A stretch of 64,000 bases of DNA, from contig CAWAMW010000016.1 of NCBI GenBank assembly GCA_963783305.1, positions 32,001-96,000 of the forward strand, in the 5' to 3' direction. This stretch comes from an uncultured Gemmatimonadales bacterium (GTDB lineage Bacteria > Gemmatimonadota > Gemmatimonadetes > Longimicrobiales > RSA9). The notes below the pieces were generated by a model. That model had not been told where the DNA came from. It ran no database searches and was given only the letters and a program-made list of their open reading frames with translations. Below are positions 25,170 through 57,755 of this stretch, in pieces (the stretch's first letter is position 1; the number at the start of each line of letters is the position of its first letter). The translations under genes and the position numbers were made by a program.

Positions 25170-26804
25170 ATGCTCCAGATCCGCAACAGCGCAGCGCTGG
25201 CTCTGCTCGTCCTCGCCGGGGGGTGCTCCCACGAGCCGCCCGCGGCGTCCACACCTGCGCCCGCGCCGGCAGCCGCGCCGGCACCCGCGGCAGCCGCGCC
25301 ATTCGCGCTGGAGGAGGTGACGGTGGCGGAGCTCGGGTCGGCCATGGAGTCGGGGCGGCTGACGTCGCGGGACATCGTGGAGGCGTACCTGGCGCGGATC
25401 GACGCGCTGGACCGCCGGGGCCCGGAGCTCCGGGCGATGCTGGACCTGAACCCGGACGCGCTGATGATCGCGGACTCGCTGGACGCGGAGCGCCGAGCGG
25501 GTCGGGTGCGGGGACCGATGCACGGGATCCCGGTGGTGGTGAAGGACAACGTTGCCACGGCGGACGGCATGACCACGACGGCGGGCGCGCTGGCGCTCGA
25601 GGGTTCGATCGCGCCGCGGGACGCCTTCATCGTGGAGCGGCTCCGAGCGGAGGGCGCGGTGATCCTGGGGAAGACGAACCTCAGCGAGTGGGCGAACTTC
25701 CGGTCGACGATGTCGTCGAGCGGCTGGAGCGGTCGCGGCGGGCAGGTGCGGAACCCGTACGCGCTGGACCGGTCGCCGTGCGGGTCGAGCTCGGGGTCGG
25801 CGGTGGCCGTGGCGGCGAACCTGGCGCCGGTGTCGGTCGGTACGGAGACAGACGGCTCGATCGTCTGCCCGGCTTCGGTGAACGGGCTGGTGGGTGTAAA
25901 GCCGACGATCGGGCTGGTGAGCCGCTCGGGGATCATCCCCATCGCCCACAGCCAGGACATCGCCGGCCCGCTGGCCCGTACTGTCACCGACGCGGCGACG
26001 CTGCTGAACGCGCTGGTGGGGGAGGATCCTCGGGATGTGAGCACCCGGGGCGTACGGCCGGCGGAGGACTACCGGAGGTTCCTGGACGACATGGCGCTGC
26101 GGGGCGCCCGGATCGGCGTGATCCGCGAGGGTTTCACGGGCTACCACGAGCCCACCGACCGGCTGCTGGAAGCAGCGCTGGACGACCTGCGGGCCGAGGG
26201 CGCGACGGTGGTGGATTCGCTGTCGCTGTCACACCAGAACGAGTACGGCGATGCCGAGTGGACCATCCTGCTGTACGAGTTCAGGCACGACCTGAACGAG
26301 TACCTGGCCGCACTCGGGCCGGACGCGCCCGTGCGGTCGCTGGCGGACGTCATCGCCTACAACCAGCGGGAGCGCGCGCGCTCCATGCCGTACTTCGAGC
26401 AGGAGATCCTGGAGCTGGCGGAGGGGAAGGGCGGGCTGGAGGAGCCGGAGTACCTGGAGGCGCTGGAGCAGGCGAAGCTGGCAGCGGCGGGAATCGACTC
26501 CATCATGCGACTGCACTCCCTCGACGCGCTCGTGGCGCCCACCACCTCACCGGCGTGGGCCATCGACCTGGTGACTGGCGACCACTTCCTGGGCGCCAGC
26601 TCCTCACCCGCGGCGGTGGCGGGCTATCCGAACATCACGGTGCCCATGGGCGACGTGCTCGGACTGCCTGTGGGCCTCTCCTTCTTCGGGCGCGCGTGGA
26701 GTGAGGGCACCCTCCTCGGGATCGCCTACGACTACGAGCAGGCGACGAAGCACCGGCGGCCGCCGACGTTCCGGCCCACCGCCACGCCGTTCGCGCCGCG
26801 GTAG
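25170..26804 (+). CDS. Amidase signature family protein (lipoprotein)
   Basis: Lipobox AGGC; HGIPVVVKDN, GKTNLSEW, GSSSGS, GTETDGSIVCP. Confidence 0.95.
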   Translation: MLQIRNSAALALLVLAGGCSHEPPAASTPAPAPAAAPAPAAAAPFALEEVTVAELGSAMESGRLTSRDIVEAYLARIDALDRRGPELRAMLDLNPDALMIADSLDAERRAGRVRGPMHGIPVVVKDNVATADGMTTTAGALALEGSIAPRDAFIVERLRAEGAVILGKTNLSEWANFRSTMSSSGWSGRGGQVRNPYALDRSPCGSSSGSAVAVAANLAPVSVGTETDGSIVCPASVNGLVGVKPTIGLVSRSGIIPIAHSQDIAGPLARTVTDAATLLNALVGEDPRDVSTRGVRPAEDYRRFLDDMALRGARIGVIREGFTGYHEPTDRLLEAALDDLRAEGATVVDSLSLSHQNEYGDAEWTILLYEFRHDLNEYLAALGPDAPVRSLADVIAYNQRERARSMPYFEQEILELAEGKGGLEEPEYLEALEQAKLAAAGIDSIMRLHSLDALVAPTTSPAWAIDLVTGDHFLGASSSPAAVAGYPNITVPMGDVLGLPVGLSFFGRAWSEGTLLGIAYDYEQATKHRRPPTFRPTATPFAPR

Positions 26805-26879
26805 CGAACGGTCGCTGCGCTCCCTAGCGAACGGTCGCTGCGCTCCCTAGCGAACGGTCGCTGCGCTCCCTAGCGAACG
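26802..26879. repeat. Perfect 23-bp tandem repeat, 3.4 copies (REP-like)
   Basis: tagcgaacggtcgctgcgctccc at 26802, 26825 and 26848, partial copy at 26871; no spacers. Confidence 0.92.
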
Positions 26880-27130
26880 CTTCGGCCTTCGGCCTCGCTA
26901 TCGAGCTGCTCGAGGGCCAGGTCGCGGGTGCCGTCCTCGGCCATGGCGATCGCCATGGCGTGCCGGGAGAATGCGCGATCGCCTCGCCGGAGGCCGTCAA
27001 GGATCCGGCGCCAGAGGCCCCTCGCCGGCCGCTCGCCGGAGCCAGGGCGCGGATCGCCGGGACCACCGCCCGGGTGGGCGTGGCGGTCGGCGTTCGGCTT
27101 CTCTCGCGACGACTCGTGTGGACCTGGCAA
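26870..27130 (-). CDS. Microprotein homologous to the linker of the tandem response regulator
   Basis: TTG start with GGGAG RBS. Its 40-aa segment at 26894-27013 is 23/40 identical to the segment at 39364-39480. Confidence 0.72.
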   Translation of the reverse strand: MPGPHESSREKPNADRHAHPGGGPGDPRPGSGERPARGLWRRILDGLRRGDRAFSRHAMAIAMAEDGTRDLALEQLDSEAEGRSVR

Positions 27131-27331
27131 CGTGACTCCCTACGGCGGCTGAACTGGCGCGTGTACGCGCCCCAAGTCTCCACGCAATCGCCGTACGAGT
27201 CAAGCGCCCCGGCCGCTGCGGCGGACAACCCGACGGGGGGCCTGCGGGACGGGGCGCGGAATCCCTCACCGGGGGTTAAACTGTTCGGTGCCGGAGTGAG
27301 CGGCCACAAACGAACCGACGAGGGGATCGTG

Positions 27332-28513
27332 ATGGATACGAAGAGGCGGGGCATCAACAGCAAGCTGGTCCACGGGAGCTATCACCCGGACGGCACGGGC
27401 GCGGTGAACGTGCCGATCTACCAGAGCTCGACGTTCGAGTTCCGGGACGCGGCGCACGGTGCGGCGCTCTTCGCGGGTGAAGGGGACGGCTACATCTACA
27501 CGCGGCTGGGCAATCCGACGATCCGTGTGCTGGAAGAGACGGTGGCGGATCTGGAGGGCGGGGCGGGCGGCATCGCCACGAGCTCGGGGATGGGGGCGGT
27601 GAGCACGCTGTACATGGCGCTGCTCGGGGGGGACGCGCACCTGGTGAGCACGGCGTCGGTGTATGGTCCGAGCCGGGGCGTGATCGAGAAGCACTTTTCG
27701 CGCTTCGGGGTGCAGGCGTCGTTCGTGAACACGTCGGATCTGGCGAAGCTGGAATCGGCGATGCGGCCGGAAACGGAGCTGGTGTACGTGGAGTCGCCGT
27801 CGAACCCGACGATGCAGGTGACGGACATCGCGGGGGCGGCGGAGATCGCGCACGCGCACGGTGCGCTGCTGGCGGTGGACAACACGTTCGCGAGCCCGTA
27901 CCTGCAGCGGCCGCTGGAGCTGGGCGCGGACGTGGTGCTGCACTCGGTGACGAAGTTCATCAACGGTCACGCCGACGTGGTGGGCGGTCTGCTGGTGGCG
28001 AAGGACCCGGAGGTCGTGGGGCGGCTCAAGGACGTGATGGTGAGCCTCGGGTGCAACATGGACCCGCACCAGGCATTCCTGGTGATCCGGGGTCTGAAGA
28101 CGCTGGGGATCCGGATCGAGCGGGCGCAGGAGAGCGCGCTCGAGCTGGCCCGGTGGCTGGAGGCGCACCCGAAAGTGGAGTGGGTCCGGTACGTGGGGCT
28201 GCCATCGCACCCGCAGCACGAGCTGGCGGCGCGGCAGATGTCGGGGTTCGGGTCGATGATCGCGTTCGAGCTGAAGGGCGGCATGGCCGCGGGCCGCAAG
28301 CTCATGGACGCGGTGGAGCTGGCGACGCTGGCGGTGTCGCTGGGGGGAGTGGAGACACTCATCGAGCACCCGGCGTCCATGACCCACGCATCCATGGCGC
28401 GGGAGGCGCGGGAAGCGGCGGGATTCACCGACGGTCTGGTCCGCTACGCGGTGGGGATCGAGGACGTGGCGGACCTCATCGCCGACCTGGAGCGGGCGCT
28501 GGAGAAGGTCTAG
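27332..28513 (+). CDS. PLP-dependent trans-sulfuration enzyme (methionine gamma-lyase/cystathionine lyase family)
   Basis: PIYQSSTF, YTRLGNPT, SGMGA, DNTFASP, HSVTKFINGH, AVSLGGVETLIEHPASMTH; 393 aa from the ATG at 27332. Confidence 0.92.
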   Translation: MDTKRRGINSKLVHGSYHPDGTGAVNVPIYQSSTFEFRDAAHGAALFAGEGDGYIYTRLGNPTIRVLEETVADLEGGAGGIATSSGMGAVSTLYMALLGGDAHLVSTASVYGPSRGVIEKHFSRFGVQASFVNTSDLAKLESAMRPETELVYVESPSNPTMQVTDIAGAAEIAHAHGALLAVDNTFASPYLQRPLELGADVVLHSVTKFINGHADVVGGLLVAKDPEVVGRLKDVMVSLGCNMDPHQAFLVIRGLKTLGIRIERAQESALELARWLEAHPKVEWVRYVGLPSHPQHELAARQMSGFGSMIAFELKGGMAAGRKLMDAVELATLAVSLGGVETLIEHPASMTHASMAREAREAAGFTDGLVRYAVGIEDVADLIADLERALEKV

Positions 28514-28519: not shown

Positions 28520-29245
28520 GTGATGACCGAGGGAGGTCGCGGCGCCCGGTCGGCGGCCGGGCCGTGGCCGGCGCGGACGCGCCTCACAGGGCGCGCTCTC
28601 CGCACTGCGCTGCGGGGGCTGCTGGCGGACGGTGAGCTGGCGGGTATCGGCGAGCTCGCGACCGGGGACCGGAGGGTGCTTCCGGGGCTGATCCCGCTGA
28701 CGTACGACTCGGATCCTGAGATCGCCCACCGCGCCGTGGAGGCCATGGGCGTCGTGGCGGACCGCACAGGGGACGGGGACCCGGAGACCGTGCGGGAGGC
28801 GCTGCGGCGCTTGAACTGGCTGATCACGGAGGAGTCGGGTGGCATCTGCTGGCGTGCGCCGGAAGCCATGGCGGAGATCGCGCGGCGGCGACCGGAGCGC
28901 TTCTCCGCGTACATCCGGATCGTGCTGAGCCTGCTCCGGGAAATGGCCGAGGAGGACCTGGCGCATTTCCGACCGGGCGTGCTGCGGGCGATCGGGCGGC
29001 TGGGTGGGCTGGGTGGCGAGGACCTGGAGGCGGCGATCCCGGCGGTCGTGGCGGCGTTGTCACATCCCGACCCGCAGACGCGGGGGATGGCGGTCTGGGC
29101 GCTGGTGGAAGTGGGGTGGGCAGGGGCGGTCCGGGATCGGGCGGAGCTTGCCGAGGATCAGGGTCCGGTCATGGTCTACGAGAACGGTGCGCTGCGCAGG
29201 ACGACCGTGGCGGAGCTCATCGCCGAAAGGGTGAAGACGCTTTAG
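28520..29245 (+). CDS. HEAT-repeat protein, DVU0298-like family
   Basis: RRLNWLITEESGGICWRAPEAMAEI motif; HEAT/PBS-like repeats. Confidence 0.7.
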   Translation: MMTEGGRGARSAAGPWPARTRLTGRALRTALRGLLADGELAGIGELATGDRRVLPGLIPLTYDSDPEIAHRAVEAMGVVADRTGDGDPETVREALRRLNWLITEESGGICWRAPEAMAEIARRRPERFSAYIRIVLSLLREMAEEDLAHFRPGVLRAIGRLGGLGGEDLEAAIPAVVAALSHPDPQTRGMAVWALVEVGWAGAVRDRAELAEDQGPVMVYENGALRRTTVAELIAERVKTL

Positions 29246-29246: not shown

Positions 29247-30848
29247 TCACAGGCCGGGAACCGGGGCGCCGGTGACCGGTGCCCTGGTATCCCGGGGGAT
29301 CACGTCCTCGTCCTCGTCGTGTACGCGGGCGGGGACCTTGGCCACGGGGAGGGAGACGGTGAAGCGCGCCCCTTCGCCGGGCCGGCTCTCGGCCCGAAGG
29401 TCGCCTCCGTGCTGCTTGATGATGCCCAGCGAGACGCTCAGCCCCAGTCCCGTCCCCTTGCCGTGCTTCTTGGTGCTGAAGAACGGGTCGAAGATGCTGC
29501 CGAGCTGGTGGGGTGGGATGCCGGCCCCCGTGTCGGAGAAGGCGATCTCGACGAAGTTCCGGTCCGCCGACTTCTGGACGCTGATCGTGAGCACGCCGCC
29601 CGCGCCCATGGCGTCGAGGGCGTTCAGAACGAGGTTCAGGAACACCTGGGTCAGCTGCTGCCGGTCCCCGTGAACGGCGGGGAGGTTTTCTTCCACGTCC
29701 CCCTGGACCCGGACGCGAGCGAGCTTCACCTGGTTGCTGGCCAGCTGGAGCGTATCGGTGATGAGCTGCTCGACGTCCAGCGGCTGGAGATCGATATCGC
29801 TCTTGCGGGCGAAGTCCAGCAGGTTGCGCACAATGTCGCGGGCCCGCTCCGACTCGTGCACCATGTCCGCGACCATGTCGAGCCGCTCGGTGTCGTCGAG
29901 CTCGGCGTAATCCTCCTGCAGGCTTTCGGCGGTCAGCATGAGGTTGTTGACCGGGTTGTTCAGCTCGTGGGCGACTCCCGCCGTGAGAGTGCCGATGGCC
30001 TGCAGCTTGTGGGTCTGGACCAGCAGCTGCTGCCGCCGCACCAGCTCCCGCAGCATGTAATTGATGCCGGCGGCCAGCTCCGAGAACTCGTCGTGGTAGC
30101 GCCGCCGTGGGAATATGGGCGTCAGGTCCCCCTCGGCGATGCGCCGTGTGGAGAGCATGATGCGGTTCAGTGGCGCCAGGATCTGGCGAGCCACGAACGC
30201 CGCCAGGAGCACCATCAGCATGACGAGGGCGGCGAGGAACGCCAGGGCCATGCGCTGCGACGCCACCAGCATCCCCTGGACATCCCGACGCTCGCGGGTG
30301 GCGAGGTCCTCGGCCACGCTCACCATTTCCGCGCCGTGCACCCGCAGCTCCGACTCGATCGCGTCCGCTCGCGCCGCGTCCGCTCGCGCCGCGTCCTGGC
30401 CGCCCGAGGGCGTCTGGAGCTCCGAGAGCAGCTCCTCGTAACGGCGGACGTGACCCCGCATCGTGTGGACGGCGGCGAGGCCGATGACCGCCGCCATGTG
30501 CTCGCTCTCCTGCTCCAGGATGACCCGTGCGCCATGGACCACGGCGAGGGCATCGTTCAGATTGGTGCCATAGAGGAAGTAGTTCTTTTCGAATCTGCGC
30601 GCCTGCTGGATCTCGAACGTATAGCGGTCCACGGCCCCCAGGATGTGGAGCTTCTCCTGGACCCCCGTGACGAGGAGCACGGACGCCACCGTCACTGCGA
30701 GGCTCAGGACGAACCAGAGCACGAGTCCACCCGCGAGCCGTGCGCGGATCGACAACCGCGGGCGGGCCCGAAGAGCGCGTTGGGCCTCGGCGGCGGCCGC
30801 GTCCAGGGGTGCGCTGCCGCCGACCTCTGTAGAGCCCGGCGAGTTCAT
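29247..30848 (-). CDS. Membrane sensor histidine kinase (helical periplasmic domain, HAMP, HisKA, HATPase)
   Basis: Two TM helices; RRFEKNYFLY; AGVAHELNNP; QVFLNLVLNA; DTGAGI; PFFSTK; GTGLGL. Confidence 0.95.
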   Translation of the reverse strand: MNSPGSTEVGGSAPLDAAAAEAQRALRARPRLSIRARLAGGLVLWFVLSLAVTVASVLLVTGVQEKLHILGAVDRYTFEIQQARRFEKNYFLYGTNLNDALAVVHGARVILEQESEHMAAVIGLAAVHTMRGHVRRYEELLSELQTPSGGQDAARADAARADAIESELRVHGAEMVSVAEDLATRERRDVQGMLVASQRMALAFLAALVMLMVLLAAFVARQILAPLNRIMLSTRRIAEGDLTPIFPRRRYHDEFSELAAGINYMLRELVRRQQLLVQTHKLQAIGTLTAGVAHELNNPVNNLMLTAESLQEDYAELDDTERLDMVADMVHESERARDIVRNLLDFARKSDIDLQPLDVEQLITDTLQLASNQVKLARVRVQGDVEENLPAVHGDRQQLTQVFLNLVLNALDAMGAGGVLTISVQKSADRNFVEIAFSDTGAGIPPHQLGSIFDPFFSTKKHGKGTGLGLSVSLGIIKQHGGDLRAESRPGEGARFTVSLPVAKVPARVHDEDEDVIPRDTRAPVTGAPVPGL

Positions 30849-30855: not shown

Positions 30856-31455
30856 TCAGCCGATGGCCTGGTGTCCCAGGGACAGGGCTGCCTTGTTGAT
30901 CACGGCTTTCAGGTCCCGGGGCTTGAACGGCTTGGAAATGAAGTCGAACGCCCCTTTCACCAGCGCCTCCCGCGCGACTTCCACCGTGGCGTAGCCGGTA
31001 ATGAGGATCACCCGTGTCCGCTCGCAATGGGCCATGACGTGCTCGAGGATCTGGATCCCGTCCAGCTCCTCCATCCGCAGGTCCGTCACGATGATGTCGA
31101 ACTCCTTCTCCGACAGCCGTGCCAGCGCCTCTGCGGGGCGCTCGAACACCTCCACGGCGAACCCGGACTTCTCCAGTGCCGGCTTCAACCGCTTGCCCAC
31201 GATGGGCTCATCGTCCAGGATCATCACGTTCAGGTCCCCGCCCACACGGCGGGGCGGTGCAATCGTCTCCATGTTCCCCTCCATTCGCTCGCCGGGGCCA
31301 AGCTCGCTTCGCACGATGCGAAGCCGGTCCAGCGCCAGCCTGGTCTTCCTTTCCACCTGCTCGCCCGTGACGCGGAACCCCTCCTGGTCCGCGTCGACCT
31401 CCGCAAACGAGATCCGGACCATCCAGTCGTCGATCTTCTTCTTCATGTCGGCCAT
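30856..31455 (-). CDS. Receiver-domain response regulator with ~70-aa N-terminal extension
   Basis: ATG at 31455 after GGGTGAG; ILDDEP, VTDLRM, ITGYAT, ISKPF; no output domain. Confidence 0.85.
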   Translation of the reverse strand: MADMKKKIDDWMVRISFAEVDADQEGFRVTGEQVERKTRLALDRLRIVRSELGPGERMEGNMETIAPPRRVGGDLNVMILDDEPIVGKRLKPALEKSGFAVEVFERPAEALARLSEKEFDIIVTDLRMEELDGIQILEHVMAHCERTRVILITGYATVEVAREALVKGAFDFISKPFKPRDLKAVINKAALSLGHQAIG

Positions 31456-31487: not shown

Positions 31488-32585
31488 TCAGGCGGCCGTG
31501 CGGACCTGTGCCAGTCGGTGCTGCAGGCGCAGCCGCTGCAGGTACGAGCGGATTACATGGAACAGGATCAGCCCGCAGCCGGAGATTCCGGCCACGAACA
31601 GCATCACCTTGCTCGCCAGATTGAAGTAGGCGTCCCACGCCGGATCGAACGCGATCCATCCCAGCTGCCGCATGTACGCGGGCGCCGCGATGGCGCGACT
31701 CACAACGCACAGCAGGATCACCACCGCGGTCACCATCCGGATCAGCCGCTCCTTCACCACCTTCGTCCCGTACACCCCGATGTAGATCCCCACCAGCGAG
31801 CCGAGATAGAGCAGCATGGTGAGTCGGATGTCCACCATTCCCTGGAACGCGTAGTTCAGCGCCCCCCACGCGCCCATGAACATAGCCAGGTAGAGCTCCG
31901 TCCCCGCCGCCACGGCCGTGGGCACCCCGAAGACGTAGATCATCGCGGGCACGCCGATGAACCCCCCCACCCCGATGGTCCCCGCCAGGTACCCGGTGGC
32001 CAGACCGACAACCCCGAGAATCCAGAGCGATACCCGCACGTCCGCCGTCTTGAAGTAGAAGTAGGGAGGGAGGTGAAGGCCGGCGAGGAAGTTGGCGATC
32101 CGACGCGACGGCCCCGCGTCGTCGTCCCCGCTCGCGGAGCGCAGCGTGTCCCGCAGCATCGAGAGCGCCACCAGCGAGAGGATGAACACGAACACCGCAC
32201 TGATGTACAGGTCCGCGGCGGCCGAGCCGCCCGAGCCGTGACCATCCCCGCCGCTCGCGAACAGTGCGCTGTTGATCCACACCGCCACCCGGATCCCGAT
32301 GAACGAGGTCAGGATCAGGAAGGCGCCCAGGCGCTTGTCCACGTTGCCCAGCTCGCCGTGCTTCCGCGAGCCCATCATCGCCTTGCCGAACTTGTGGGCG
32401 ATGTTGCTCCCCACCGCCACCACACCCGGCACCCCGAGGTTCATCATCCCAGGGGTCATGAAGAAGGCGCCGCCGCTCCCTATGAAGCCGGACAGAATGC
32501 CGCCGATGAGCCCCAGGACCATGACCTGAATGGCGCTGGACAGGTCCAGGGTAACGAAGTTCGAAACCAGGAATGAGCTTTCCAT
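31488..32585 (-). CDS. TSUP (TauE/SafE) family sulfur-compound transporter
   Basis: SGFIGSGGAFFMTP and GTIGVGGFIGVP repeats, AAGTEL, multiple TMs. Confidence 0.9.
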   Translation of the reverse strand: MESSFLVSNFVTLDLSSAIQVMVLGLIGGILSGFIGSGGAFFMTPGMMNLGVPGVVAVGSNIAHKFGKAMMGSRKHGELGNVDKRLGAFLILTSFIGIRVAVWINSALFASGGDGHGSGGSAAADLYISAVFVFILSLVALSMLRDTLRSASGDDDAGPSRRIANFLAGLHLPPYFYFKTADVRVSLWILGVVGLATGYLAGTIGVGGFIGVPAMIYVFGVPTAVAAGTELYLAMFMGAWGALNYAFQGMVDIRLTMLLYLGSLVGIYIGVYGTKVVKERLIRMVTAVVILLCVVSRAIAAPAYMRQLGWIAFDPAWDAYFNLASKVMLFVAGISGCGLILFHVIRSYLQRLRLQHRLAQVRTAA

Positions 32586-34138: not shown

Positions 34139-35740
34139 TCACGGGGGACCGCCGAGCACTGGCATGCCCATGGCCGGCCAGACGAAGCACACGAAGAGCG
34201 CCAGGACGGCCATCAGGAGGAGGCTGGCGGGGACACCGGCGATGAAGAACTCCTTCGTCGTGAACTGGTTGCTGGTGTAGGCGATGGCGTTGGGCGCAGC
34301 GCCGATCAGGAGGAGGAAGGGCATCCCGGCGGTGACGAGACACGCGAAGAGGACAACCTCCGGGGCTACGCCCAGGTAGGGTGCCATGACGAGGGCCACC
34401 GGCATGGTGATGGCGATGGCAGCGACGTTCATGATGAAGTTGGTCATGACCAGCACGAACGCCGCGATGCCGAGGACGAAGACGACCCAGTGGGCGTTCA
34501 CGAAGAGGGACAGCCAGTGGATGGCCAGCCAGGAGGCGGCACCGGTCTCCCACAGGCAGAAGCCGAGGCTCATGGCCCCGCCGAAGAGCAGGATGATGTT
34601 CCACGACGTCTTCTCGAGATCCTCGAGGGAGACGATCCGGAGCACGAAGAAGAGGACGGTGGCGGTGAGGATGATGGCGCTCTTGTCCACCTCGGCCATG
34701 GCCGGCACGAAGTTGCGCACGCTGAGGAGCGTGATGGCCATGAGCACGAGAACGAGAGCCAGCACCTCCTCGCGGGTGATGGGGCCGAGGTTCTCGTGGA
34801 GACGCCGGACCCGGTCGCGGAGCCCCGGGATCGTCTTCCGCTCGGGTGGATACCAGAGCATCATGTACCCCCAGATCAGGAGGGTCATCAGGATGCCCAC
34901 CGGGAACATGAAGAAGGACAGCTCGAAGAAGCCGATGGACCCGCCGGTGATCTGGTTGTAGAAGCCGAGGGCCACGGCACCGCGGGCGGCGCCCAGGAGG
35001 GTGATAATGCTCCCGGCCCCCGCCACGAAGGCCATCCCCATGAACAGCCCTTTCCCGAAGCGGGTGGGCTCGGTGTCATCGGAGTAGAGGGCGTAGACGG
35101 CGAGCAGCAGCGGGAACACGGTGGCCGCCACGGCGGTGTGGGCCATGATGAGGGTGAGGGCGGCGGTGAGGGCGAAGCAGCCGAGATAGATCATGCTGGT
35201 CCGCTCGCCCACGATGCTGAGCATGCGGTAGGCGAGGCGTCGGGTCAGGCCGGTCTTGGTGAAGACCATGCCGAACATGAGGGACCCGAAGATGAACCAG
35301 ACGGACGGGTCCATGAAGTCGGTGAACGCGGTGCGGGCCGGTCGGATGAGGAAGAGCGCCTGCAGGACGCCCACCGCGATGCTGGTCACGCCGATGGGGA
35401 CCACCTCGCTGATCCACCAGGTGGCGGCGAAGAGGAAGAGTCCGAGGGCCGCCTTCCCCTGCGGCGTGAGGGGGAAGGCCTCTCCCCGCGGATCCATGGC
35501 GGGGCCCGGGGTGGGAGCGAAGTAGAGGAGCGCGAACAGCGCCACGCCCAGTATGACGAATACGACCCGTCGCCGCTGCGCGGCCGGGGTGAGCTGGGGC
35601 GCGGAGGGCGGCGGTCCATCGCCGTCCCCGGCCACGCGTTTGGCGATGCGGACGGACCCCGGCCGCTCGGCAACCGTCGCGTGGCCGACACCCTTCTCCT
35701 CCATCCCCCCCTTCGCGGGGGCCACCACCGGACTGGACAT
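34139..35740 (-). CDS. SLC13/DASS family anion permease (candidate sulfate uptake)
   Basis: WWISEVVPIGVT, MAHTAVAA, WNIILLFGGAMSLG, GAAPNAIAY. Confidence 0.9.
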   Translation of the reverse strand: MSSPVVAPAKGGMEEKGVGHATVAERPGSVRIAKRVAGDGDGPPPSAPQLTPAAQRRRVVFVILGVALFALLYFAPTPGPAMDPRGEAFPLTPQGKAALGLFLFAATWWISEVVPIGVTSIAVGVLQALFLIRPARTAFTDFMDPSVWFIFGSLMFGMVFTKTGLTRRLAYRMLSIVGERTSMIYLGCFALTAALTLIMAHTAVAATVFPLLLAVYALYSDDTEPTRFGKGLFMGMAFVAGAGSIITLLGAARGAVALGFYNQITGGSIGFFELSFFMFPVGILMTLLIWGYMMLWYPPERKTIPGLRDRVRRLHENLGPITREEVLALVLVLMAITLLSVRNFVPAMAEVDKSAIILTATVLFFVLRIVSLEDLEKTSWNIILLFGGAMSLGFCLWETGAASWLAIHWLSLFVNAHWVVFVLGIAAFVLVMTNFIMNVAAIAITMPVALVMAPYLGVAPEVVLFACLVTAGMPFLLLIGAAPNAIAYTSNQFTTKEFFIAGVPASLLLMAVLALFVCFVWPAMGMPVLGGPP

Positions 35741-35769: not shown

Positions 35770-36297
35770 TCACTCGAGCAGCATTGCCAGCTCATTGAAC
35801 ACGTCCACGGACCGCACCACCCCCACGAGGTCACCGCCATCCACGACGGGGATCAGGCTGAGGTCGAGGGAGACCATGGTGGAGAGCGCCTTCATGATGT
35901 GGTCATCCGCGGACAGGACGGCCTCGATGGGGCGCATGACATCGCTGACCGGGCGGGCACCCTGTTTCCGGATCCCGCTCACCATCCGGTCGAAGGGGAG
36001 CTCGGCCAGGTTGGGGTCGATGGCGATGTCGAAAGGCTTGTTGCGGTATTCCAGCGGGCGACTGAGGAGGAAGCGCGGCTCGAGCCCCCTCAGGATGTCG
36101 CGGCGGCGGACGTAGCCGACCAGGACCTCGATCCCGTCGAAGACGAGGACGCAGCGGGGCAGGGACTTGCGGAGCGCGACCTCGAGCTGTGCCGAGGTGA
36201 AGACCGCCATGGCGTCGCGGAGCGAGGCCGTGTCCCTCACCGATGGGTACCGATCGATGGGGATCAGGATATCCTTGAGGTGTGTCATCGAGTCCAC
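35770..36297 (-). CDS. CBS-domain protein (alternative ATG at 36288)
   Basis: LKDILIPIDRYP, VSDVMRP, IPVVDGGDLVGVVRSVDVF. Confidence 0.88.
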   Translation of the reverse strand: MDSMTHLKDILIPIDRYPSVRDTASLRDAMAVFTSAQLEVALRKSLPRCVLVFDGIEVLVGYVRRRDILRGLEPRFLLSRPLEYRNKPFDIAIDPNLAELPFDRMVSGIRKQGARPVSDVMRPIEAVLSADDHIMKALSTMVSLDLSLIPVVDGGDLVGVVRSVDVFNELAMLLE

Positions 36298-36301
36298 GCT
36301 C

Positions 36302-36739
36302 CTACCACCCCCTCTTGCGCGTGATGTCGTTGATGCGCCGCTGGATCCTCTGGTCGTCGAGCGTGGCGCGACGGTGGGCCGCGTCCTCGATGAGGTCCAC
36401 CAGCTCGGCGAGCTCGGCCGGCTTCTCCACCAGGTCGAGTGCTCCGGCCTTCATGGCCTCCACCGCCTGCGCGACGGTGGCGCGGCCGGTGAGGATGATC
36501 ACCTGGAGGTCGGGGTAAAGGGCGCGGAGGCCGCGCATCGTCTGGAGCCCGTCGAGCCCGGGCATGGCCATGTCGAGGAGCACCGCGTCATAGCCGCGGT
36601 CGCGGCCGCGGGCGCTCGCGAGGGCGTCGGCGCCGCTCGTGGCCACGTCGACCTCGAGGCCGCGCGCCGCGAGTCGTGCGCCCAGCACCGCCACGAAGTC
36701 TTCCTCATCGTCGATCAGCAGAACCCGTATATCGCTCAT
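36302..36739 (-). CDS. Stand-alone receiver response regulator
   Basis: VLLIDDEEDF, LLDMAMPGLDG, ILTG, EKP. Confidence 0.92.
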   Translation of the reverse strand: MSDIRVLLIDDEEDFVAVLGARLAARGLEVDVATSGADALASARGRDRGYDAVLLDMAMPGLDGLQTMRGLRALYPDLQVIILTGRATVAQAVEAMKAGALDLVEKPAELAELVDLIEDAAHRRATLDDQRIQRRINDITRKRGW

Positions 36740-37137
36740 GATTCGACCCTCCGATCCGCGGCGTCCTTCAGGACCTGCTCCAGCACCTCGATGGCGACCG
36801 GCTTGGACAGGAGCGTGCGGGCACCAACGGCGTGCGCCGCCTCGTCGTCCTCGGGTGCGGTTCGCCCGGTGAGCAGGACGACCTCCGTCTCCGGATGGTC
36901 GGCGCGGATCCGGGCGGTCAGCTCGAGACCGCCGATCCCGGGCATCCGGATATCCACCAGCACCACGTCCCACGACTCCCGCGCCATGCGGTCCAGCGCC
37001 GCCACGCCGTGCGTGACGCCCGCGGCGATGAAGCCCCGGAGCTGGAGGCGCTCGGTGAGCGCGCTCACCAGCTCCTCCTCGTCATCCACGATCAGCACGC
37101 GCACGGTTTCCATAGGGTGCTCCGGCTCAGAGTTCAT
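36736..37137 (-). CDS. Stand-alone receiver response regulator
   Basis: VLIVDDEEEL, LVDIRMPGIGG, LLTG, SKP. Confidence 0.92.
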   Translation of the reverse strand: MNSEPEHPMETVRVLIVDDEEELVSALTERLQLRGFIAAGVTHGVAALDRMARESWDVVLVDIRMPGIGGLELTARIRADHPETEVVLLTGRTAPEDDEAAHAVGARTLLSKPVAIEVLEQVLKDAADRRVES

Positions 37138-38884
37138 CCACGGGAAGGGTGACGGTGAATCGCGTCCCCTCTCCCACCGTGCTCTCGACGGTTATGTCCC
37201 CGCCGAGCTTCTGGACGATGCCATATGTGATGGACAGCCCCAGGCCGGTCCCCGCCCCCTTCTTGGTCGTGAAGAACGGATCGAAGATCCGGGGCAGGTT
37301 TTCCTCGCTGATGCCCACGCCGTCATCGAAAATGGTCACGGCCACCGCCCCGCGGCTCGACGGGCCCACCTCGAGCTCTATGTGCCCGCCGTCCTCCACC
37401 GCCGCGAAGGCGTTGTTGATGATGTTCAGGAACACCTGCTGGAGCTGACCGCGGTCGCTGACGACGGGGGGCGTGTCCTCGGCGTGACGCAGCTCGATCT
37501 CGATCTCGCGATAGCGGGCCTCCTGCTCCAGGAACCCCAGGACCTCATGCAGCAGCACGTCCAGGTGGATCGTCTCGCGCTGCACGTCCATGTGCTTCGC
37601 GAAGCCGAGGAGGCGGTGGGTGATCCCGCCGCAGCGCTCCGCCGACTTCAGGACCGAGTCCAGGATCTCCAGCATCTTCTCGCGTGGGGGCGGCTCGGAG
37701 GAGCGGGTGAGGAGGTCGTGCAGCAGCCCGGCCTTCTGACTGATGATGGACAGCGGATTGTTGATCTCGTGCGCGACCCCGGCCCCGAGGCGGCCGATGG
37801 CCGCCAGCTTGTTGGTGTACTCGATCTCGTGGAAGAGCGCGGCGCGTCGGCGGTCGGCCTCGCGAGCGGTGCGGACGGCGTAGATCGCGCCGCCGATGAC
37901 GAGAGCCAGGATGATGATCCCGCTGACGAGGGGCAGCAGCACGAGGTCTCGGCGGAGCGAGGCCCAGCCGGCGTGGAACTCGTCGCGGGGGCTGAGCAGG
38001 ACCAGCGTGAAGGGGGAGCGCTGGAGGCGCGCGAAGGCCGCCACCACGGGCGTGCCGAGCCCGTCCGTGGTGGAGATGAAGGTGGTCTCCTCGGTGTAGG
38101 GCAGCGGGGGCAGGGGCGCGGTGTCGAGCACGGCGCCGTAGAGCCGTGAGGGTGTCTGGAGCACGCCGTGGTCGTTGACGATGAACGCGTCGCTGAAGGT
38201 GGGGACGCCCAGGGCGTGGCAGCGCCCGCAGGCGGAGCCGCGCTCGGGCCGTCGGCTGCCCCGATCGCGTACCAGCCAGTGGAAGACGTCAGTGTCGATG
38301 GTCGCCCGCAGCGCGAACCAGCGGCCACCGCCGCGGTCCCCATGGATGGCGACCACGATGTGGGGGAGGTTTCGGTACCCCAGGAATACGTCGCTGACGT
38401 GGGACCCGCGCGTGGCGACCTCCCGGAACCACTCCTGCTCGCTGTAGTCGCGTCCCTCCAGCGCGTACGGGCCCGCGTAGGCGACCTGCAGCCCGCTGTC
38501 ATCGATGAGCCCGAGGTCCACCACACCGCTGAACGTCTGCTCCAGGTCGCGGAGCACCGCCTCCAGCCGGGCCGGTTCCGTCAGCGACTCGTACGAGTTG
38601 CTCCGGACCACGAGGTGGAGCGCCGACAGCCGCTCGTCCAGGTACGCTTCCAGCGAGTGCCTGCCCGCTTCCGCGAACCGGAGCATCGGTCGGGTCTGCT
38701 GTGATCGGAACGCCTCCCGGTATTCCCGGTAGCTGATCCAGGACATGACGCCGAGAGGGAGCAGTGAGATGGCCGAGACGACCAGCACGAACGTGATGAG
38801 CATCCGGCGGTAGCGGCCGCCGGAGATCAGTCGCTCGACATCCGGTCGTTCCGTGGGGGGTGGACCCCGACCCTTGGTGCGCAT
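37127..38884 (-). CDS. Sensor histidine kinase with Cache-like periplasmic domain containing CxxCH
   Basis: TM-AYAGPY..SDVFLGYRNLPH..CGRCH-TM; AGVAHEINNP; NIINNA; DDGVG; GTGLGL. Confidence 0.95.
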   Translation of the reverse strand: MRTKGRGPPPTERPDVERLISGGRYRRMLITFVLVVSAISLLPLGVMSWISYREYREAFRSQQTRPMLRFAEAGRHSLEAYLDERLSALHLVVRSNSYESLTEPARLEAVLRDLEQTFSGVVDLGLIDDSGLQVAYAGPYALEGRDYSEQEWFREVATRGSHVSDVFLGYRNLPHIVVAIHGDRGGGRWFALRATIDTDVFHWLVRDRGSRRPERGSACGRCHALGVPTFSDAFIVNDHGVLQTPSRLYGAVLDTAPLPPLPYTEETTFISTTDGLGTPVVAAFARLQRSPFTLVLLSPRDEFHAGWASLRRDLVLLPLVSGIIILALVIGGAIYAVRTAREADRRRAALFHEIEYTNKLAAIGRLGAGVAHEINNPLSIISQKAGLLHDLLTRSSEPPPREKMLEILDSVLKSAERCGGITHRLLGFAKHMDVQRETIHLDVLLHEVLGFLEQEARYREIEIELRHAEDTPPVVSDRGQLQQVFLNIINNAFAAVEDGGHIELEVGPSSRGAVAVTIFDDGVGISEENLPRIFDPFFTTKKGAGTGLGLSITYGIVQKLGGDITVESTVGEGTRFTVTLPVDEL

Positions 38885-38892: not shown

Positions 38893-39834
38893 TCAGCCGC
38901 CGGTGCCGGCAGCGGACGGGTCCGGCGGAGCGGTCGCTCCCGACCGCCCCGCGCGCCGGATGGTGTCCATCAGGATCTCGATGTCCACCGGCTTCTGCAG
39001 GTAGTCGAGCGCGCCCAGGCGTCGAGCCTCCTTCTCATCGCGTTCCGAGCCGTGGCCCGTGAGGATGACGACGGGCAGCTCCGGGTAAAGCTTCTTCACC
39101 CGCCGGAGCACCTCCAGGCCATCGAGGTCCGGCATGCGGAGATCGAGGACCATGACGTCCGGCCGCTCCCCCTCCAGAAGCTCCAGTGCCTGCGCCCCCC
39201 CCAGCGCCACGTCGCCGCCCATCTCCCGCATCCGCATCCGCTCCTCCAGCGTGCGGACGAAGTCCTCCTCATCGTCGACGAAGAGCACCTTGAGCGACCC
39301 CGGGGCCGCGTGTGCGCTCGGCTCGACCGGCGATGCGGGCGCAGGGGCGCGGGCCTCGGCTCGCTCGGACTCCAGGTACTCCACGGCGAGGTCGGTGCCC
39401 CCCTCCGCGAGTGCGGCGGCGGTCATGGACCGGCTGAACTCGCGTCCGGACTCCTTCAGCGCGTCCAGCGCCCGTCTCCACGCAGAGCGGATGGAGTCCA
39501 GCAGCTCCCCGGTGTCCGCCGGCTTCTCCAGATAGCGATAGGCACCCAGCCGCCGTGCCTCCTCCTCGGCCTCCGGGGAGCCGCGGCCCGTGAGGACGAT
39601 GACCTGGATATGGGGGTGCTCGCGCTTTACGCGCTCCAGCACCGTCATCCCGTCGATCCCCGGCATGCGGAGGTCGAGGACCACGACGTGAGGGGCGTCG
39701 GCCGCCACCGCCTCGAGCGCCTCTTCACCGCTGAGGGCGACCCGGGCGGCGACATCGCGCAGAGCCAGGCGCCCGGCCATCGCGCGGACATAGTCCTCCT
39801 CGTCGTCCACGAGGAGCAGCTTGAGCGGGCTCAT
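38893..39834 (-). CDS. Tandem double-receiver response regulator
   Basis: Two receivers (LVDDEEDY/LDLRMP/EKP and FVDDEEDF/LDLRMP/QKP) joined by a helical linker. Confidence 0.92.
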   Translation of the reverse strand: MSPLKLLLVDDEEDYVRAMAGRLALRDVAARVALSGEEALEAVAADAPHVVVLDLRMPGIDGMTVLERVKREHPHIQVIVLTGRGSPEAEEEARRLGAYRYLEKPADTGELLDSIRSAWRRALDALKESGREFSRSMTAAALAEGGTDLAVEYLESERAEARAPAPASPVEPSAHAAPGSLKVLFVDDEEDFVRTLEERMRMREMGGDVALGGAQALELLEGERPDVMVLDLRMPDLDGLEVLRRVKKLYPELPVVILTGHGSERDEKEARRLGALDYLQKPVDIEILMDTIRRAGRSGATAPPDPSAAGTGG

Positions 39835-40520
39835 GATTCGACCTCCGGGAGCAGCAGGATCACCCCGCGGCTGTCGCGCTCCAGGGTCGCCGACAGCGCG
39901 GCGAGGATGGGCCGGAGCGCGTCGTGGGACCCGCCCATGGCGTCGTCCGGGCCGGGGTCGTCGGCGGGGAGGCCGAAAACGACCGCGGCGCCGCCCTTCC
40001 GTGTCTCGGGCTGCACCACGAGGGTCGCACCGTCCGCGCTCCTTTCCAGGGACCATTCCATGAGGGCCACCAGCGCCATGTACAGGTCCAGGGCTACGGC
40101 GGTGGTGTGCACATCATTGGCGGCGGGCTGGATCTCGATCCGGCGGCCGCCCTGCTGTGCGAAGCGGCGAGTCAGGGCGACGGTGAGGGCCACGGCGTCG
40201 GCGAGCGACAGGCGCTCGCTGCCCTGGTCGAGGCCGTGCATGATGCGGTTCAGTGAAGTGGAGAGGTCGGCGCCCCGCGCGACCTGGATCCGGATCCGCT
40301 CCAGCGACCACCGCACTCGCCCGGCATCCGGGGCGACGCCCGGGCCGGCCAGGTCCGTCAGATCCCCGATGAGCCCCGCCGACTCCTTCACGATCGCCAG
40401 CACGTTGCGGATCTCGTGGGTCGCGCTCGCGGTGAGCCGCGCAATGAACGCGGCTCGGCGAGCATCCTGCCCCGGGAGCGTCAGCCAGGCCGGTGCCGGA
40501 GTCGTCGTCGCGGCGGTCAT
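39831..40520 (-). CDS. Degenerate histidine kinase-like protein (putative His phosphotransferase)
   Basis: H-box ASATHEIRN intact; no N, G1 or G2 boxes; no TM or sensor domain. Confidence 0.7.
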   Translation of the reverse strand: MTAATTTPAPAWLTLPGQDARRAAFIARLTASATHEIRNVLAIVKESAGLIGDLTDLAGPGVAPDAGRVRWSLERIRIQVARGADLSTSLNRIMHGLDQGSERLSLADAVALTVALTRRFAQQGGRRIEIQPAANDVHTTAVALDLYMALVALMEWSLERSADGATLVVQPETRKGGAAVVFGLPADDPGPDDAMGGSHDALRPILAALSATLERDSRGVILLLPEVES

Positions 40521-43398: not shown

Positions 43399-44481
43399 TC
43401 ACACGATGAAGGGGAGTCCCAGCCCCTTCGTGATGGCCTTGGCTCCCGCGAACAGGAGGATCAGGATCACCATCCAGCGGATGAACGCCGGCTTGGCGAC
43501 CTTGAGCAGCCTCACCCCCACCAGCGACCCGAGCATGATGCCCACCAGCGAGGGGACCACCAGCAGCGGGATGATGCAGCCCTGGTTCATGTAGACCCAC
43601 GCGGCCGACGTGTCGGTGATGGAGAGGAGGAACTTGCTCGTTCCCACGCTGACCTTGAGTGGCGCGCCGAACACCAGATTCAGCACCGGCACGTTGGCCC
43701 ACCCGGCGCCCAGCCCGAACATCCCGGCCATGAAGCCAATGACAATGAAGAGGAGGAGCCCCATGGGAGTCCGGTGGATCTTCCAGTCCACCTCCTGCCC
43801 CATGCTCGCCTCCATGTACACGCCGCTGATGCCCAGAGCCGTGGAGAGTCGGTCGGCGCGGGGCACCACGGGGAAGGTGGATTTCTTCGCCCGGAGCATG
43901 ATCGCCACGATCCCGAGGATCGCGACGCCGAGCGAGGTCTGGATCACGTTCGTCGGGAGCGCCAGCCCGACCATGGCGCCGAACACGGCGCACGTCGACG
44001 CGATGAGCGCCACGGGCATGGCCAGCCGGAGGTTCGCCAGGTTCATCCGCAGGAACCCGGGGCCGGCCGCGAGCGCGCCCGACATGGCCACCAGCAGACC
44101 GGTGCCGCGCACGAAGTCGAGGTGGAACGGGCAGAACCCGCTCACGATCGGCACGAAGAGCACGCCGCCGCCCACACCGGCCATGGCGGCCAGGATCCCC
44201 ATGACGAACGTCATGACGAAGAGTGTGGCCGGCCAGAACCACCACGCGGCGGAGATGCCGGTCGCGGCGGCGCCGTCCGTGGCGGCACCGAGCCCTGTGG
44301 CGGCGGCCTCCTGCGCGTGGAGCGACGCGGGCGGGCTGGCGAGCAGGAGGGCGATCACGACCGCGAGCAGGAGCGCGAGCCCGAGGAGAGCGGTACCCGG
44401 CGCGATGGCGGAGCGGGCGCTGGGCACGCGGCTGCCAGCGTTACGCCGGAGAGCGATCGGGGTCGGATGAAATCTCGTCAT
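43399..44481 (-). CDS. TSUP (TauE/SafE) family transporter
   Basis: AGVGGGVLFVP, PFHLDFVRG, GMFGLGAGWANVP, VGTSKF. Confidence 0.9.
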   Translation of the reverse strand: MTRFHPTPIALRRNAGSRVPSARSAIAPGTALLGLALLLAVVIALLLASPPASLHAQEAAATGLGAATDGAAATGISAAWWFWPATLFVMTFVMGILAAMAGVGGGVLFVPIVSGFCPFHLDFVRGTGLLVAMSGALAAGPGFLRMNLANLRLAMPVALIASTCAVFGAMVGLALPTNVIQTSLGVAILGIVAIMLRAKKSTFPVVPRADRLSTALGISGVYMEASMGQEVDWKIHRTPMGLLLFIVIGFMAGMFGLGAGWANVPVLNLVFGAPLKVSVGTSKFLLSITDTSAAWVYMNQGCIIPLLVVPSLVGIMLGSLVGVRLLKVAKPAFIRWMVILILLFAGAKAITKGLGLPFIV

Positions 44482-49467: not shown

Positions 49468-50550
49468 TTAGTGTCTGAGGTGCGTGGACCGCTTGAATGT
49501 CAGCCCGGCGTACCTGTAGTCATCAATGTGCTCCTTCTGGAACTCGATGCCCGTCAGCTGGAAGAACTTCGGCCAGCCGATCCGCTCGATGAACTCGCCC
49601 ATCCGCTCGTGCTTCCGGGCGCCGTCCACCCACACGTCCACGATCTTCCGAACCGTGTTCACCACGGTCGGCCAGCGCGGCGGCTCGTTCTCGATGAACG
49701 GGACGGCCAGCTTCGAGAACATGGGCTCGTGACGGGCGTTGGAGACCTTGCCCCCCACCCACAGCGAGATCCCGTCGTTCAGCGCGTCCGCCATCGGCAG
49801 CGCCGGACAGACCGAGAAGCAGTTCGCGCAGTACATGCACAGCTCCTCGTCGATCACCACCGACGGGTTGCCATCCACCGTGGTCGGCCGGATCGCCGCC
49901 GTGGGGCACGCCGCCACCACGTTCGGGATCTCGCACAGCTTGTTCAGGTTGCCCTGCACCTTCGGCGGCCGCCGATGCACGCCCAGGATCGCGATGTCCG
50001 AACAGTGCACTGCGCCGCACATGTTCAGGCAGCACGCGAGCGCGATCCTCAGCTTGCCCGGGATCGGACGCGTGCCGTCGAAGTGCTCGTGCAGGTCGTC
50101 CATGACCGCCTTCACCAGACCGGACGCGTCCGTGGCCGCCGAGTGGCAGTGGACCCAGCCCTGGGTGTGCACGATGTTCGACACCGCGTGGCCGATCCCG
50201 CCCACCGGGTGCCCCAGATCCGCGAGCTCCGCGATGAGCGGCTCGATCTTCGACTCCTCCGTGAGGAGGAACTCCACGTTGTGCCGGCTGGTGAAGCGCA
50301 GGTAGCCGTCGCAGTACTTGTCGGCCAGCTCCGCGTACTTCCGGATGCGCTTCGTGCCCAGCAGCCGGGGCGAGGCGGCGCGCACCGTGAAGAGCATGTC
50401 GCCCGACTCTCCCACGTGGACCATGACGCCCGGCCTGATGATCCGGTGGAACTTCCAGGTCCCGTAGTTCTTCTTGACCATCGGGTGCAGGAAGCGCTTG
50501 TAGTCCGGGGGGCCGATGTCGGTCCTTCTTTCCTCCATTGCCGTTGCCAT
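49468..50550 (-). CDS. dsrB: Dissimilatory sulfite reductase beta subunit
   Basis: [49 protein letters not shown]. Confidence 0.98.
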
Positions 50551-50614
50551 CGTCTATCTCCCGATTGTCCGTTCGTTCGTTGGTTATCCGCTCCAGGTCC
50601 GCCCTCGGGCGGCG

Positions 50615-51847
50615 CTACGCCTTCACCGTTTCGACCTCTTCCTCCTCGACCTCTTCCTCCTCCTCCTCGTAGTATTCCTCGAAGAAGATGTAGGGGTTGT
50701 CGCGGGGGGCGTTGACCATTTCGGGGATGGGCTCGAGGCCGATGGCCTCGATGAAGTTGCCGAGCCCGACGCGCTGCATGAGCTCGCCGACGCGTTCGCG
50801 GTTCTTGCCGTGCTCACCCCAGAAGTCCCAGATCCGCTCGGCGAGGTCCTTCAGCTCCTCGTAGGGCGGCTCCATCTTCATGAACGGCACGATCACCGAC
50901 GAGAGCTGGGCGCCCTCCACGATGGGCGCCTTGGCCCCGAGGAGGATGGTCGCGCCGCGGTCGGTGCCCGGGCGCAGCGCCTCGGGCATCGCGTTGATGC
51001 AGTGCATGCACTTCACGCAGTTGCTGTTGTCGATCGTGAGCGTCTCGCCGTCCCACTCCATGCACTTCGTGGGGCAGTTGCTCACGACCTCGCGCTGGAT
51101 GTCGAGCCCCTCGGCGGCGTACCGCGTGACGCGCTCCTCGTCCATCCGGATGTCGTCCCGCCACGTCCCGATGATGGACATGTCCGCGCGGGCGATGGCC
51201 GCGACGCAGTCGTTGGGGCAGCCGGAGGCCTTGAACTTGAACTTGTACGGGAACGCCGGACGGTGGAGCTCGTCCTGGAAGGTGTTGGTGATGTCGTGGG
51301 TGAAGTCGAGCGTGTCGAAGCACGCCCACTCACACCGCGCCGGCCCGACGCAGCAGCTCGGGGTCCGCACATCGGAGCCGGAGCCGCCCAGGTCGAAGTC
51401 GTTGTCCGTCAGCTCCTTGAACGTGGGCTCCAGCTCGTCCGTGGACGTGCCCAGGAAGATGATGTCGCCCGTGGAGCCGTGCATGTTGGTGAGGCCGGAG
51501 CCGTGCCGGTCCCAGATGTCGCACAGGGTCCGCAGCGCGTCGGACGTGTAGAACCACCCCGCCGGCTGGTTGACCCGGAGCGTGTGGAAATGGGCGATGG
51601 CCGGGTACTCCTCCGGCCGGTCGTTGTAGCGGCCGATGACGCCGCCGCCGTACCCCATGACGCCCACGATCCCGCCGTGCTTCCAGTGGCCGACCTTCTC
51701 CTCGTAGGAACGCTCCAGCAGCTGCAGGAGCTGCTTGCAGGACTCCTTCTCGCTGGCCATCTCCTTGATCTGTGTGACGAAGCTGGGCCATGCTCCCTTT
51801 TCCAGCTCGTCCAAGAGCGGAGTGCCTTTACCGTTACCGTCTGCCAT
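50615..51847 (-). CDS. dsrA: Dissimilatory sulfite reductase alpha subunit
   Basis: [53 protein letters not shown]. Confidence 0.98.
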
Positions 51848-51896
51848 CCTGATCTCCTTTCAACGGTTGCTCTGGCGTCTGCGCCAGCACTGCGAA

Positions 51897-53060: not shown

Positions 53061-53093
53061 GTCACTCCCTCACTCGCCGCCGATCGGCGGGAT

Positions 53094-53954: not shown

Positions 53955-54312
53955 GGCACTCCCAGCAGGTGGGGCCCACATCCGCGTACTCGTGGCAGCG
54001 GACGCAGAACGTCTGGCGATCGTTGTGGCACCCCATGCAGGTGCCGGTGAGGCTGATGGCGTGCACGGCTCCGGTGGACGACGTGTACTCCGTCGCACCC
54101 TCCCGGACGGCGGCCTGGCGCCAGGCGCCCAGGAGCGCGGGGTGGTGGGCACGCATGTACTCCGCGCTCTCCACGCACTCCGTCTCGGCGGCGGGATAGA
54201 CCAGCTCGGGGGCCGCGCCCTCCGCGCGGGTCAGCGTGCCGTACCACGCGGGGAAGAGGGCGAGCGCGACGAAGACGCCGAGGCCCGTGTAGATCCAGGT
54301 GCGGTCGCTCAT
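53941..54312 (-). CDS. dsrJ: DsrJ triheme cytochrome c
   Basis: N-terminal TM; CMGCH, CVRCH, CWECH; CVES..YMR..H. Confidence 0.93.
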   Translation of the reverse strand: MSDRTWIYTGLGVFVALALFPAWYGTLTRAEGAAPELVYPAAETECVESAEYMRAHHPALLGAWRQAAVREGATEYTSSTGAVHAISLTGTCMGCHNDRQTFCVRCHEYADVGPTCWECHVEP

Positions 54313-56030: not shown

Positions 56031-56032
56031 GG

Positions 56033-57633: not shown

Positions 57634-57710
57634 GACCTCGGCGCGCCGCTTGTCGAGCGCGCATCCTTCGTTCGGCCGGCTCCCGCGCCGGCATGGGAAC
57701 ACCAGCGCCG

Positions 57711-57750
57711 TGGCCGGCCGGCCGCGCGTCGAGGCGCGGTCGGCCGGCTA
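57711..57750 (-). terminator. Long imperfect hairpin just after the dsrC stop
   Basis: tggccggccggccgcgc-gtcgag-gcgcggtcggccggcta, a ~17-bp stem with 2 mismatches. Confidence 0.5.
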
Positions 57751-57755
57751 TGGCG

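Follow-up and report, generated by a model that had tools for sequence, protein, structure and literature searches.

Among the described systems closest to the one analysed here are the plant microProteins, presented in the sections of the account that we draw on as competitive-inhibitor peptides, for example MIF against ZHD5 and RADIALIS against DIVARICATA (PMC3794426). A second point of reference is sulfate uptake in bacteria. According to the available portions of one account, the importers of dissimilatory sulfate reducers and their affinity switching are not yet settled, and TSUP and DASS proteins are poorly characterised candidates for sulfate transport; the terms "response regulator" and "histidine kinase" have no occurrence in those portions (PMC5840216). 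Excerpts of other studies describe sigma54-controlled TSUP operons in Desulfovibrio vulgaris (PMC4641369), leave the DVU0145-0150 cluster unannotated (PMC4265775), and report sulfate reducers from the Gemmatimonadota (PMC11316326).

Here, we analyse a small gene in a 64,000-nucleotide stretch of DNA (the window) that also carries a dsr island. An earlier note on the window had taken the encoded microprotein for a free-standing copy of a linker peculiar to a double receiver of that island. Judged by its sequence, the peptide common to the two proteins is instead a lineage variant of an unnamed helix-Gly-helix motif and not a special linker. What appears to be new is a portable motif in the transporter operons of sulfate reducers, one copy of which stands free and would fit microProtein logic.

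The small gene, its island and its origin

The microprotein ORF (26870..27130, minus strand) runs for 86 amino acids from a TTG start. A low-complexity N-tail of ~39 residues is followed by a helical lead-in, one copy of the motif (copy 1; 26903..26971, minus strand), in which position -7 is Ala and not the large hydrophobic residue of the family, and a repeat-derived end. A Shine-Dalgarno-like GGGAG (27136..27140, minus strand) stands 5 nt before the TTG, and the gene is divergent from that of a Cys/Met PLP lyase (27332..28513, plus strand), which is nearest to methionine gamma-lyase models, under their cut-offs. TTG, GGGAG and divergence were all found where the earlier note had placed them. 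Farther upstream lies a promoter-like site, TTGAC(N)-17 nt-GAGACT (27175..27203, minus strand), whose pattern occurs at 5 sites genome-wide. The same pattern and spacing are found in the congeners G004 and G006 and not in a third, G002; a scan for consensus promoters and terminators at the microprotein gene found none, the promoter-like site falling under the scanner's threshold. The TTG is the sole in-frame start in the window and in G002 and aligns with the TTG of G004 and G006, and TTG and promoter-like site together are kept in three of the four genomes with a free copy (window, G004 and G006).

In all four genomes, the motif frame has the top codon score of the six frames. The N-tail (37-55 codons) is without a coding signature in all four, and it is homologous among them and in frame with the motif despite its differing length. 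The free-standing motif is under purifying selection: over 20-30 motif codons, pN/pS is 0.03/0.33 for G004-G006 and 0.08/0.48 and 0.14/0.50 for the pairs with G002. Pairs including the window copy, the most diverged or relaxed of the set, give 0.21-0.26/0.40-0.50, and this copy may be relaxing. The small gene is real and conserved, and the sequence evidence makes it probable that the ORF is translated.

A search with the ORF matched 5 of 41 related genomes, and free-standing copies are present in three of the six congeners (G002, G004 and G006). A genus-wide profile search returned the same three, a fused copy only in G005, and neither a free nor a fused copy in G001 and G003 (74% and 89% complete). 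These orthologs and the purifying selection on the motif contradict, as far as conservation goes, the idea that the ORF is a decaying, unconserved fragment, which the earlier note had named as the finding that would overturn its reading. Five further free-standing relatives (P0005, P0007, P0008, P0009 and P0011) were found in a protein library. The receiver-fused copy accompanies the free copy in four of four genomes, and at least five relatives (G005, G014, G023, G039, G089, G099) have a fused motif and no free copy; since they do without it, the free copy is dispensable. Searches farther afield gave less: a single-sequence search with the ORF yielded 6 candidates, none at E<=0.01, and one with the linker region 3 hits. 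For the free-standing subfamily in metagenome contigs, none of 598 + 596 pattern matches was confirmed; a plasmid collection held no motif match, and in viral contigs one of 171 stretches was confirmed (L133:3001-3204; two-copy profile, E 1e-6), in which no clear ORF was found. In the ESM Atlas, the best value for the ORF core was an uninformative 0.78, and a relative with two copies gave no more than a lead, matching Thermodesulfobacteriota clusters without a name at 0.83-0.85.

A gene for a DVU0298-family HEAT-repeat protein (28520..29245, plus strand) is no more than 1.5 kb away from the microprotein gene in all four genomes that have the latter. Among relatives (loci L002, L004, L006, L119 and L121) this gene shifts within or off the dsr island, always beside the microprotein gene where that is present; in G004 the microprotein gene is itself away from the island. 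The HEAT protein was rejected as a general partner, having no BLAST match in the 80 motif loci described below.

The remainder of the island lies on the minus strand. It comprises a HAMP-HisKA-HATPase sensor kinase (29247..30848), a receiver with a conserved N-extension of ~60 residues (30856..31455), a TauE/TSUP transporter (31488..32585), a DASS transporter of the Na-sulfate symporter family whose start is uncertain (34139..35740), a CBS protein, two single receivers and a Cache-HisKA-HATPase kinase (together 35770..38884), the double receiver (38893..39834), a kinase-like protein with an H-box-like N-terminus and no Pfam or NCBIfam match (39831..40520), a second TauE/TSUP transporter (43399..44481), and a run of dsrB, dsrA, NrfD-type and Fe-S genes, an RsbRD_N (DsrT-like) gene, dsrC and sat (49468..59816), which provides the dissimilatory sulfur setting; dsrA and dsrB score over their cut-offs. 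The double receiver reads REC, motif, spacer, REC, with motif copy 2 (39373..39438) forming the C-terminal extension of its first receiver. Three cytidylate-kinase-like paralogs (32589-34094, 44494-45387 and 45314-45970), one with C-terminal membrane segments and one with a BON domain, are kept beside TSUP genes in relatives. Between dsrB and a DsrL-like gene is an 82-aa ORF (49208-49456) with no Pfam match, which we take to resemble DsrD.

A third, truncated variant of the motif opens the N-extension of the 31455 regulator (about 31396-31434, minus strand), where the earlier note had seen a weak echo. Taken alone, the window copy is not significant (11.6 bits, E 0.5). The extension is kept in four of four relatives retrieved, with FAEAG in three of them and FAEVD in the window, and these orthologs score 13.8-20.9 bits on a single-motif profile, against 9.3 bits for the best unrelated genome frame. 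Because the orthologs match better, we consider the echo a real truncated variant.

The alignment of microprotein and double-receiver linker with 23 identities in 40 positions was reproduced, both peptides translating as quoted. In tblastn against the whole 4.35-Mb genome the two match each other at E 3e-8 to 4e-8, and the next-best genomic match to the linker is at E 0.16; the genome thus has only two strong copies. The codons at 26870-26904, which specify the last ~10 residues and stop of the ORF, are inside a REP-like array of 23-bp repeats (26802..26904) between the ORF and a convergent amidase gene. The repeat's core 15-mer is found at 19 places in the genome, and other copies end at the same letters. 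As the repeat supplies them, the last two identities are not protein homology, leaving 21/37; without repeat-derived residues the local score is 92, compared with a shuffle mean of 31.7 (sd 4.9, max 57; 2000 shuffles). Repeats of this type often stand in tandem at gene ends; other copies lie, for example, at G000 C17:377745, C15:268999 and C7:178892.

The free copy could be a relic, untranslated or recently relaxed, left behind when a receiver tail was duplicated in part, with only the fused copies at work. In the window microprotein the lead-in of receiver helix 5, with its Trp, is retained, as would fit an origin by partial duplication; its copy is diverged and truncated by the repeat, the N-tail has no codon bias, the TTG is a weak start, and several dsr relatives have no free copy. 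We nevertheless consider a relic unlikely, given that pN is far under pS among the orthologs, that start and promoter-like site are conserved and that free-standing motif genes are normal elsewhere (73 small ORFs in 80 kept loci). A midpoint-rooted tree of low resolution, built on segments of 36 residues from 9 free, 9 fused and 6 related copies and from 30 canonical copies chosen at random, also argues against it, as the free copies form one clade (support 0.95), sister to the fused copies (0.745), with free and fused copies jointly at 0.895. These clades, together with a third-position identity of just 48% between the two window copies, make free and fused copies an old lineage-specific pair and not a fresh duplicate. 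Identity between free and fused copies of the lineage is 0.57, versus 0.37 and 0.46 to canonical copies. Homologs of the kinase-like protein at 39831-40520 occur in 11 of 80 loci, usually adjoining motif genes, and in several loci of other phyla a small two-copy motif gene lies between the kinase-like gene and tagged receivers. That slot is empty in the window, so the microprotein may be its replacement.

An unnamed motif of transporter operons

The motif spans ~25 residues with the consensus h-[ED]-x-x-[MF]-x-A-h-[TA]-[FLM]-A-E-[AEG]-G-x-x-[ED]-x-A-x-E-h-[LM]. The order of hydrophobic, small and aromatic positions, A-E-x-G and another amphipathic turn points to a helical hairpin spaced much like a TPR. 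An eight-copy profile run against 1.84 billion representatives returned 29 proteins, 28 of them with the motif and mostly small with 2-3 copies; the long TPR protein P0023 was left out of motif building. The window-lineage profile aligns with the canonical two-copy profile over 30 columns (hhalign probability 96.1%, E 2.8e-9), and the latter collects 2,435 clusters of 50-226 residues, every name among the 120 clusters listed being "hypothetical protein". The earlier note's description of the peptide as uncharacterised holds: the motif matches no family of Pfam, NCBIfam or the PDB above cut-off (best PDB profile match, E 0.85), and searches of the literature, mainly openly readable main texts, on the motif letters and the TSUP, USP and regulator context returned no description. 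A metal site formed by Glu and His was dismissed, as His is present in only 42% and absent in the window copy.

A pattern scan of species genomes gave at least 608 stretches, of which 170 were confirmed and 80 loci kept, with titles, among the matches listed, mostly of Desulfobacterales, Desulfobulbales, Syntrophobacterales, Deltaproteobacteria and Nitrospirae; because the loci were picked by a motif-core pattern, conservation of the core is inflated in this set. Among the matches listed, the kept loci hold 180 motif ORFs (73 small, 31 receivers and 76 medium-sized), and 65 of the 80 have at least two motif genes. The medium class is called USP-like on the strength of clustering and of Usp matches in 4 of 12 proteins tested, 2 over the Pfam cut-off. 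The motif sits at N-termini, at C-termini and inside USP-like folds, alone or in 2-3 tandem copies; in other phyla it ends single receivers and is found on USP-like and free proteins. This portability speaks against the claim that the microprotein copies a linker special to the double receiver. Many two-copy small proteins (L038, L047, L082 and others) end in an L-G-L-x-G-h-R-h-x-Y-G-like strand, occasionally duplicated, which is a second unnamed module.

Attachment at any position, together with the hydrophobic face and often basic N-terminus of the first helix, is what would be expected if the motif were a non-specific address, either a membrane-binding amphipathic helix or a protease or chaperone recognition tag of the operon's soluble proteins. 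Yet Ala, Glu and Gly positions that hardly vary are better suited to a packing surface of specific shape, and a gene consisting of the tag only would be of little use; we judge this reading improbable.

Usually several neighbouring genes carry the motif, and they precede a TSUP or DASS/CitMHS transporter gene; in the recurring arrangement the small gene comes first, then the USP-like gene and then the transporter, often behind a pair made up of a kinase and an activator. In the 41 long loci (>=10 kb), clustering places a TSUP or IT-superfamily transporter in 37 (TSUP only in 23, IT-superfamily only in 11, both in 3), and BLAST to window proteins finds one in 39; the nearest motif gene is at a median of 318 bp. 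A kinase is present in 35, at a median of 1223 bp from a motif gene, and the kinase plus activator context in 31-35. The motif/TSUP operons of L070 and L077 each include a PEP-synthase-like (PPDK_N) gene of 860 aa.

The motif is also nearly confined to genomes with dsrA. Among 301 genomes of the window's own phylum there were 6 matches, of which G295 (E 7.9e-5) was rejected as a chance match in a frame without a start, in a genome without dsrA; the other 5 all fall among the 7 genomes with dsrA. In the phylum of G326, the motif is present in 28 of 151 genomes, and 26 of these have dsrA (74 with dsrA overall); in the phylum of G327 it is present in 33 of 101, all 33 with dsrA (54 overall). As kin are not independent and a short profile can be missed, these figures are counts and not a test. 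They bear on the co-occurrence check that had been proposed for a motif profile and, with the transporter neighbours, bear out the earlier note's link of FAEAGE peptides to TSUP genes in sulfate reducers. The window genome, with dsrA and a TSUP/DASS plus kinase module, conforms to the family. The motif occurs in only a third to two thirds of dsrA genomes and therefore tracks the transporter-signalling module, not the core pathway.

This context favours the shared-target idea of the earlier note. In the form weighed here, the tag would bind a common third protein, either the transporter at its cytoplasmic face or the sensor kinase; proteins with several copies would bind the partner's oligomer multivalently, and the microprotein would titrate the site. 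Transporter and kinase are frequent neighbours, and the two own-phylum dsrA genomes without the motif are also without orthologs of the island's DASS and kinase. There is a precedent in TeaD of Halomonas elongata, reportedly a USP that regulates the TeaABC transporter. Nevertheless, a single uniform motif would need to recognise two transporter folds that are unrelated, a transporter occurs without a kinase in 5 long loci and a kinase without a transporter within 6 kb in 3, and the motif shows no locus-specific drift, its alikeness being 0.492 within loci versus 0.481 +/- 0.006 between them (p 0.04, kinship uncorrected). We regard a shared third target as rather unlikely. The more specific proposal that CMK-like and CBS proteins are the targets lost ground, as these are in just 3 and 10 of the 80 loci; any partner of the USP, sigma54-activator, CMK-like or CBS type is lacking in many loci or in the window island, which leaves the tag itself, the transporter and the kinase as candidates.

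Receivers and a candidate docking role

The earlier note had proposed that receivers expose the peptide on phosphorylation, and in its strongest form the motif would be an output helix rigidly coupled to receiver helix 5, with the microprotein as a constitutive mimic. The motif does follow helix 5 directly in 31 receivers of the 80 kept loci and in all double receivers, and of 8 double receivers of the own phylum that were aligned, 6 have a spacing of 25. Across the family, however, the spacing ranges from 15 to 33 residues and keeps no constant register, 9 of the 33 receivers aligned with their motif are pseudo-receivers without the phosphorylation signature, 149 of the 180 motif ORFs (among the matches listed in the 80 kept loci) are not labelled receivers, and the motif is N-terminal in the 31455 regulator. 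The rigid output helix is very improbable, marginally more so than a non-specific address, and exposure by phosphorylation is unlikely as a general rule; the motif would rather be a tethered docking element than a phospho-switch. In L041, L046, L047, L084, L097 and L107, a pseudo-receiver stands in tandem with a canonical receiver and both carry the tag; the double receiver of the window may be a fused analogue of such pairs.

The docking role suggested in the earlier note is compatible with the anatomy of the motif. In the reading that we prefer, at a probability of about 0.4, the only functional part of the microprotein would be one portable helix-Gly-turn-helix tag, and the tag would be a tethered protein-protein docking element that packs on other tags. 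Within one operon, tagged receivers, pseudo-receivers, USP-like proteins and small proteins with several copies would thereby form a regulatory complex serving a sulfur-anion transporter (TSUP or DASS/CitMHS). A microprotein consisting of the tag only would cap this assembly or compete in it (a predicted direction of effect), setting the share of the double receiver and the N-tagged receiver that is engaged. As a modulator of this kind, the small protein probably tunes the assembly of tagged regulators; for a single-copy tag, an adaptor role is less likely than that of cap or competitor.

We favour tag-tag packing over a shared third target because the tag does not differ between loci whose transporter folds are unrelated, and shows little likeness peculiar to a locus. 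Self-association is further favoured because tandem copies occur 34-47 residues apart and because the free and fused copies of the window's lineage have shifted together from the family consensus, although duplication or a shared third partner would explain this joint shift equally well. Covariation between tandem copies in 90 two-copy proteins (Neff 52) gave no interpretable contact. A bolder version, possible though on balance doubtful, is that sulfate reducers have a dedicated peptide-tag system, in which the hairpin would zip tagged proteins together in trans, as a split, TPR-like stack at sulfur-anion importers, with microproteins as caps or scaffolds that set sulfate-uptake capacity post-translationally.

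Comparison with described systems

The tag resembles the TPR in the spacing of small, aromatic, Gly, Ala and hydrophobic residues, the corresponding TPR positions being 8, 11, 15, 20 and 24, and several members give weak Pfam matches to TPR_4, TPR_6 and TPR_12, all sub-cut-off. Membership of the TPR family was rejected, since the ORF has no Pfam match, its relatives remain sub-cut-off and hhalign against a real TPR array gave 3.7% over 10 columns. Unlike TPRs, the tag occurs in 1-3 copies split by charged, non-conserved linkers and not in contiguous arrays of at least three 34-residue units, even though the copy spacing is 34 in 62 of 88 two-copy proteins (35-47 in the rest).

As with TeaD, USP-like genes stand directly beside transporter genes in motif operons, but here these proteins bear the motif and are degenerate, 2 of 12 passing the Pfam cut-off, and the window island has none of them. 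The sigma54-controlled TSUP operons of D. vulgaris and the TSUP/DASS candidates for sulfate uptake share the transporter families and the kinase plus activator context, and the portions of their accounts drawn on here mention neither the motif nor the small genes (PMC4641369, PMC5840216). Presence of the motif upstream of particular TSUP and DASS/CitMHS genes marks a candidate subset of sulfate transporters and their likely accessory regulators, and its profile could be applied to thousands of hypothetical proteins.

The closest parallel is with the plant microProteins. The small protein has 86 residues with one conserved segment, and its module is homologous to part of a larger protein of the same genome. 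As in plants, one short segment is shared with larger multidomain regulators, probably by domain loss, and plant microProteins are predicted, in the sections of the account considered here, to compete in complexes of larger regulators (PMC3794426). The present case differs in being bacterial, in that the shared segment is no known interaction domain, in that the partners would be receivers and USP-like proteins and not transcription factors, and in that inhibition is hypothetical here. The microprotein can serve to test, in bacteria, whether two-component proteins are regulated in the manner of microProteins.
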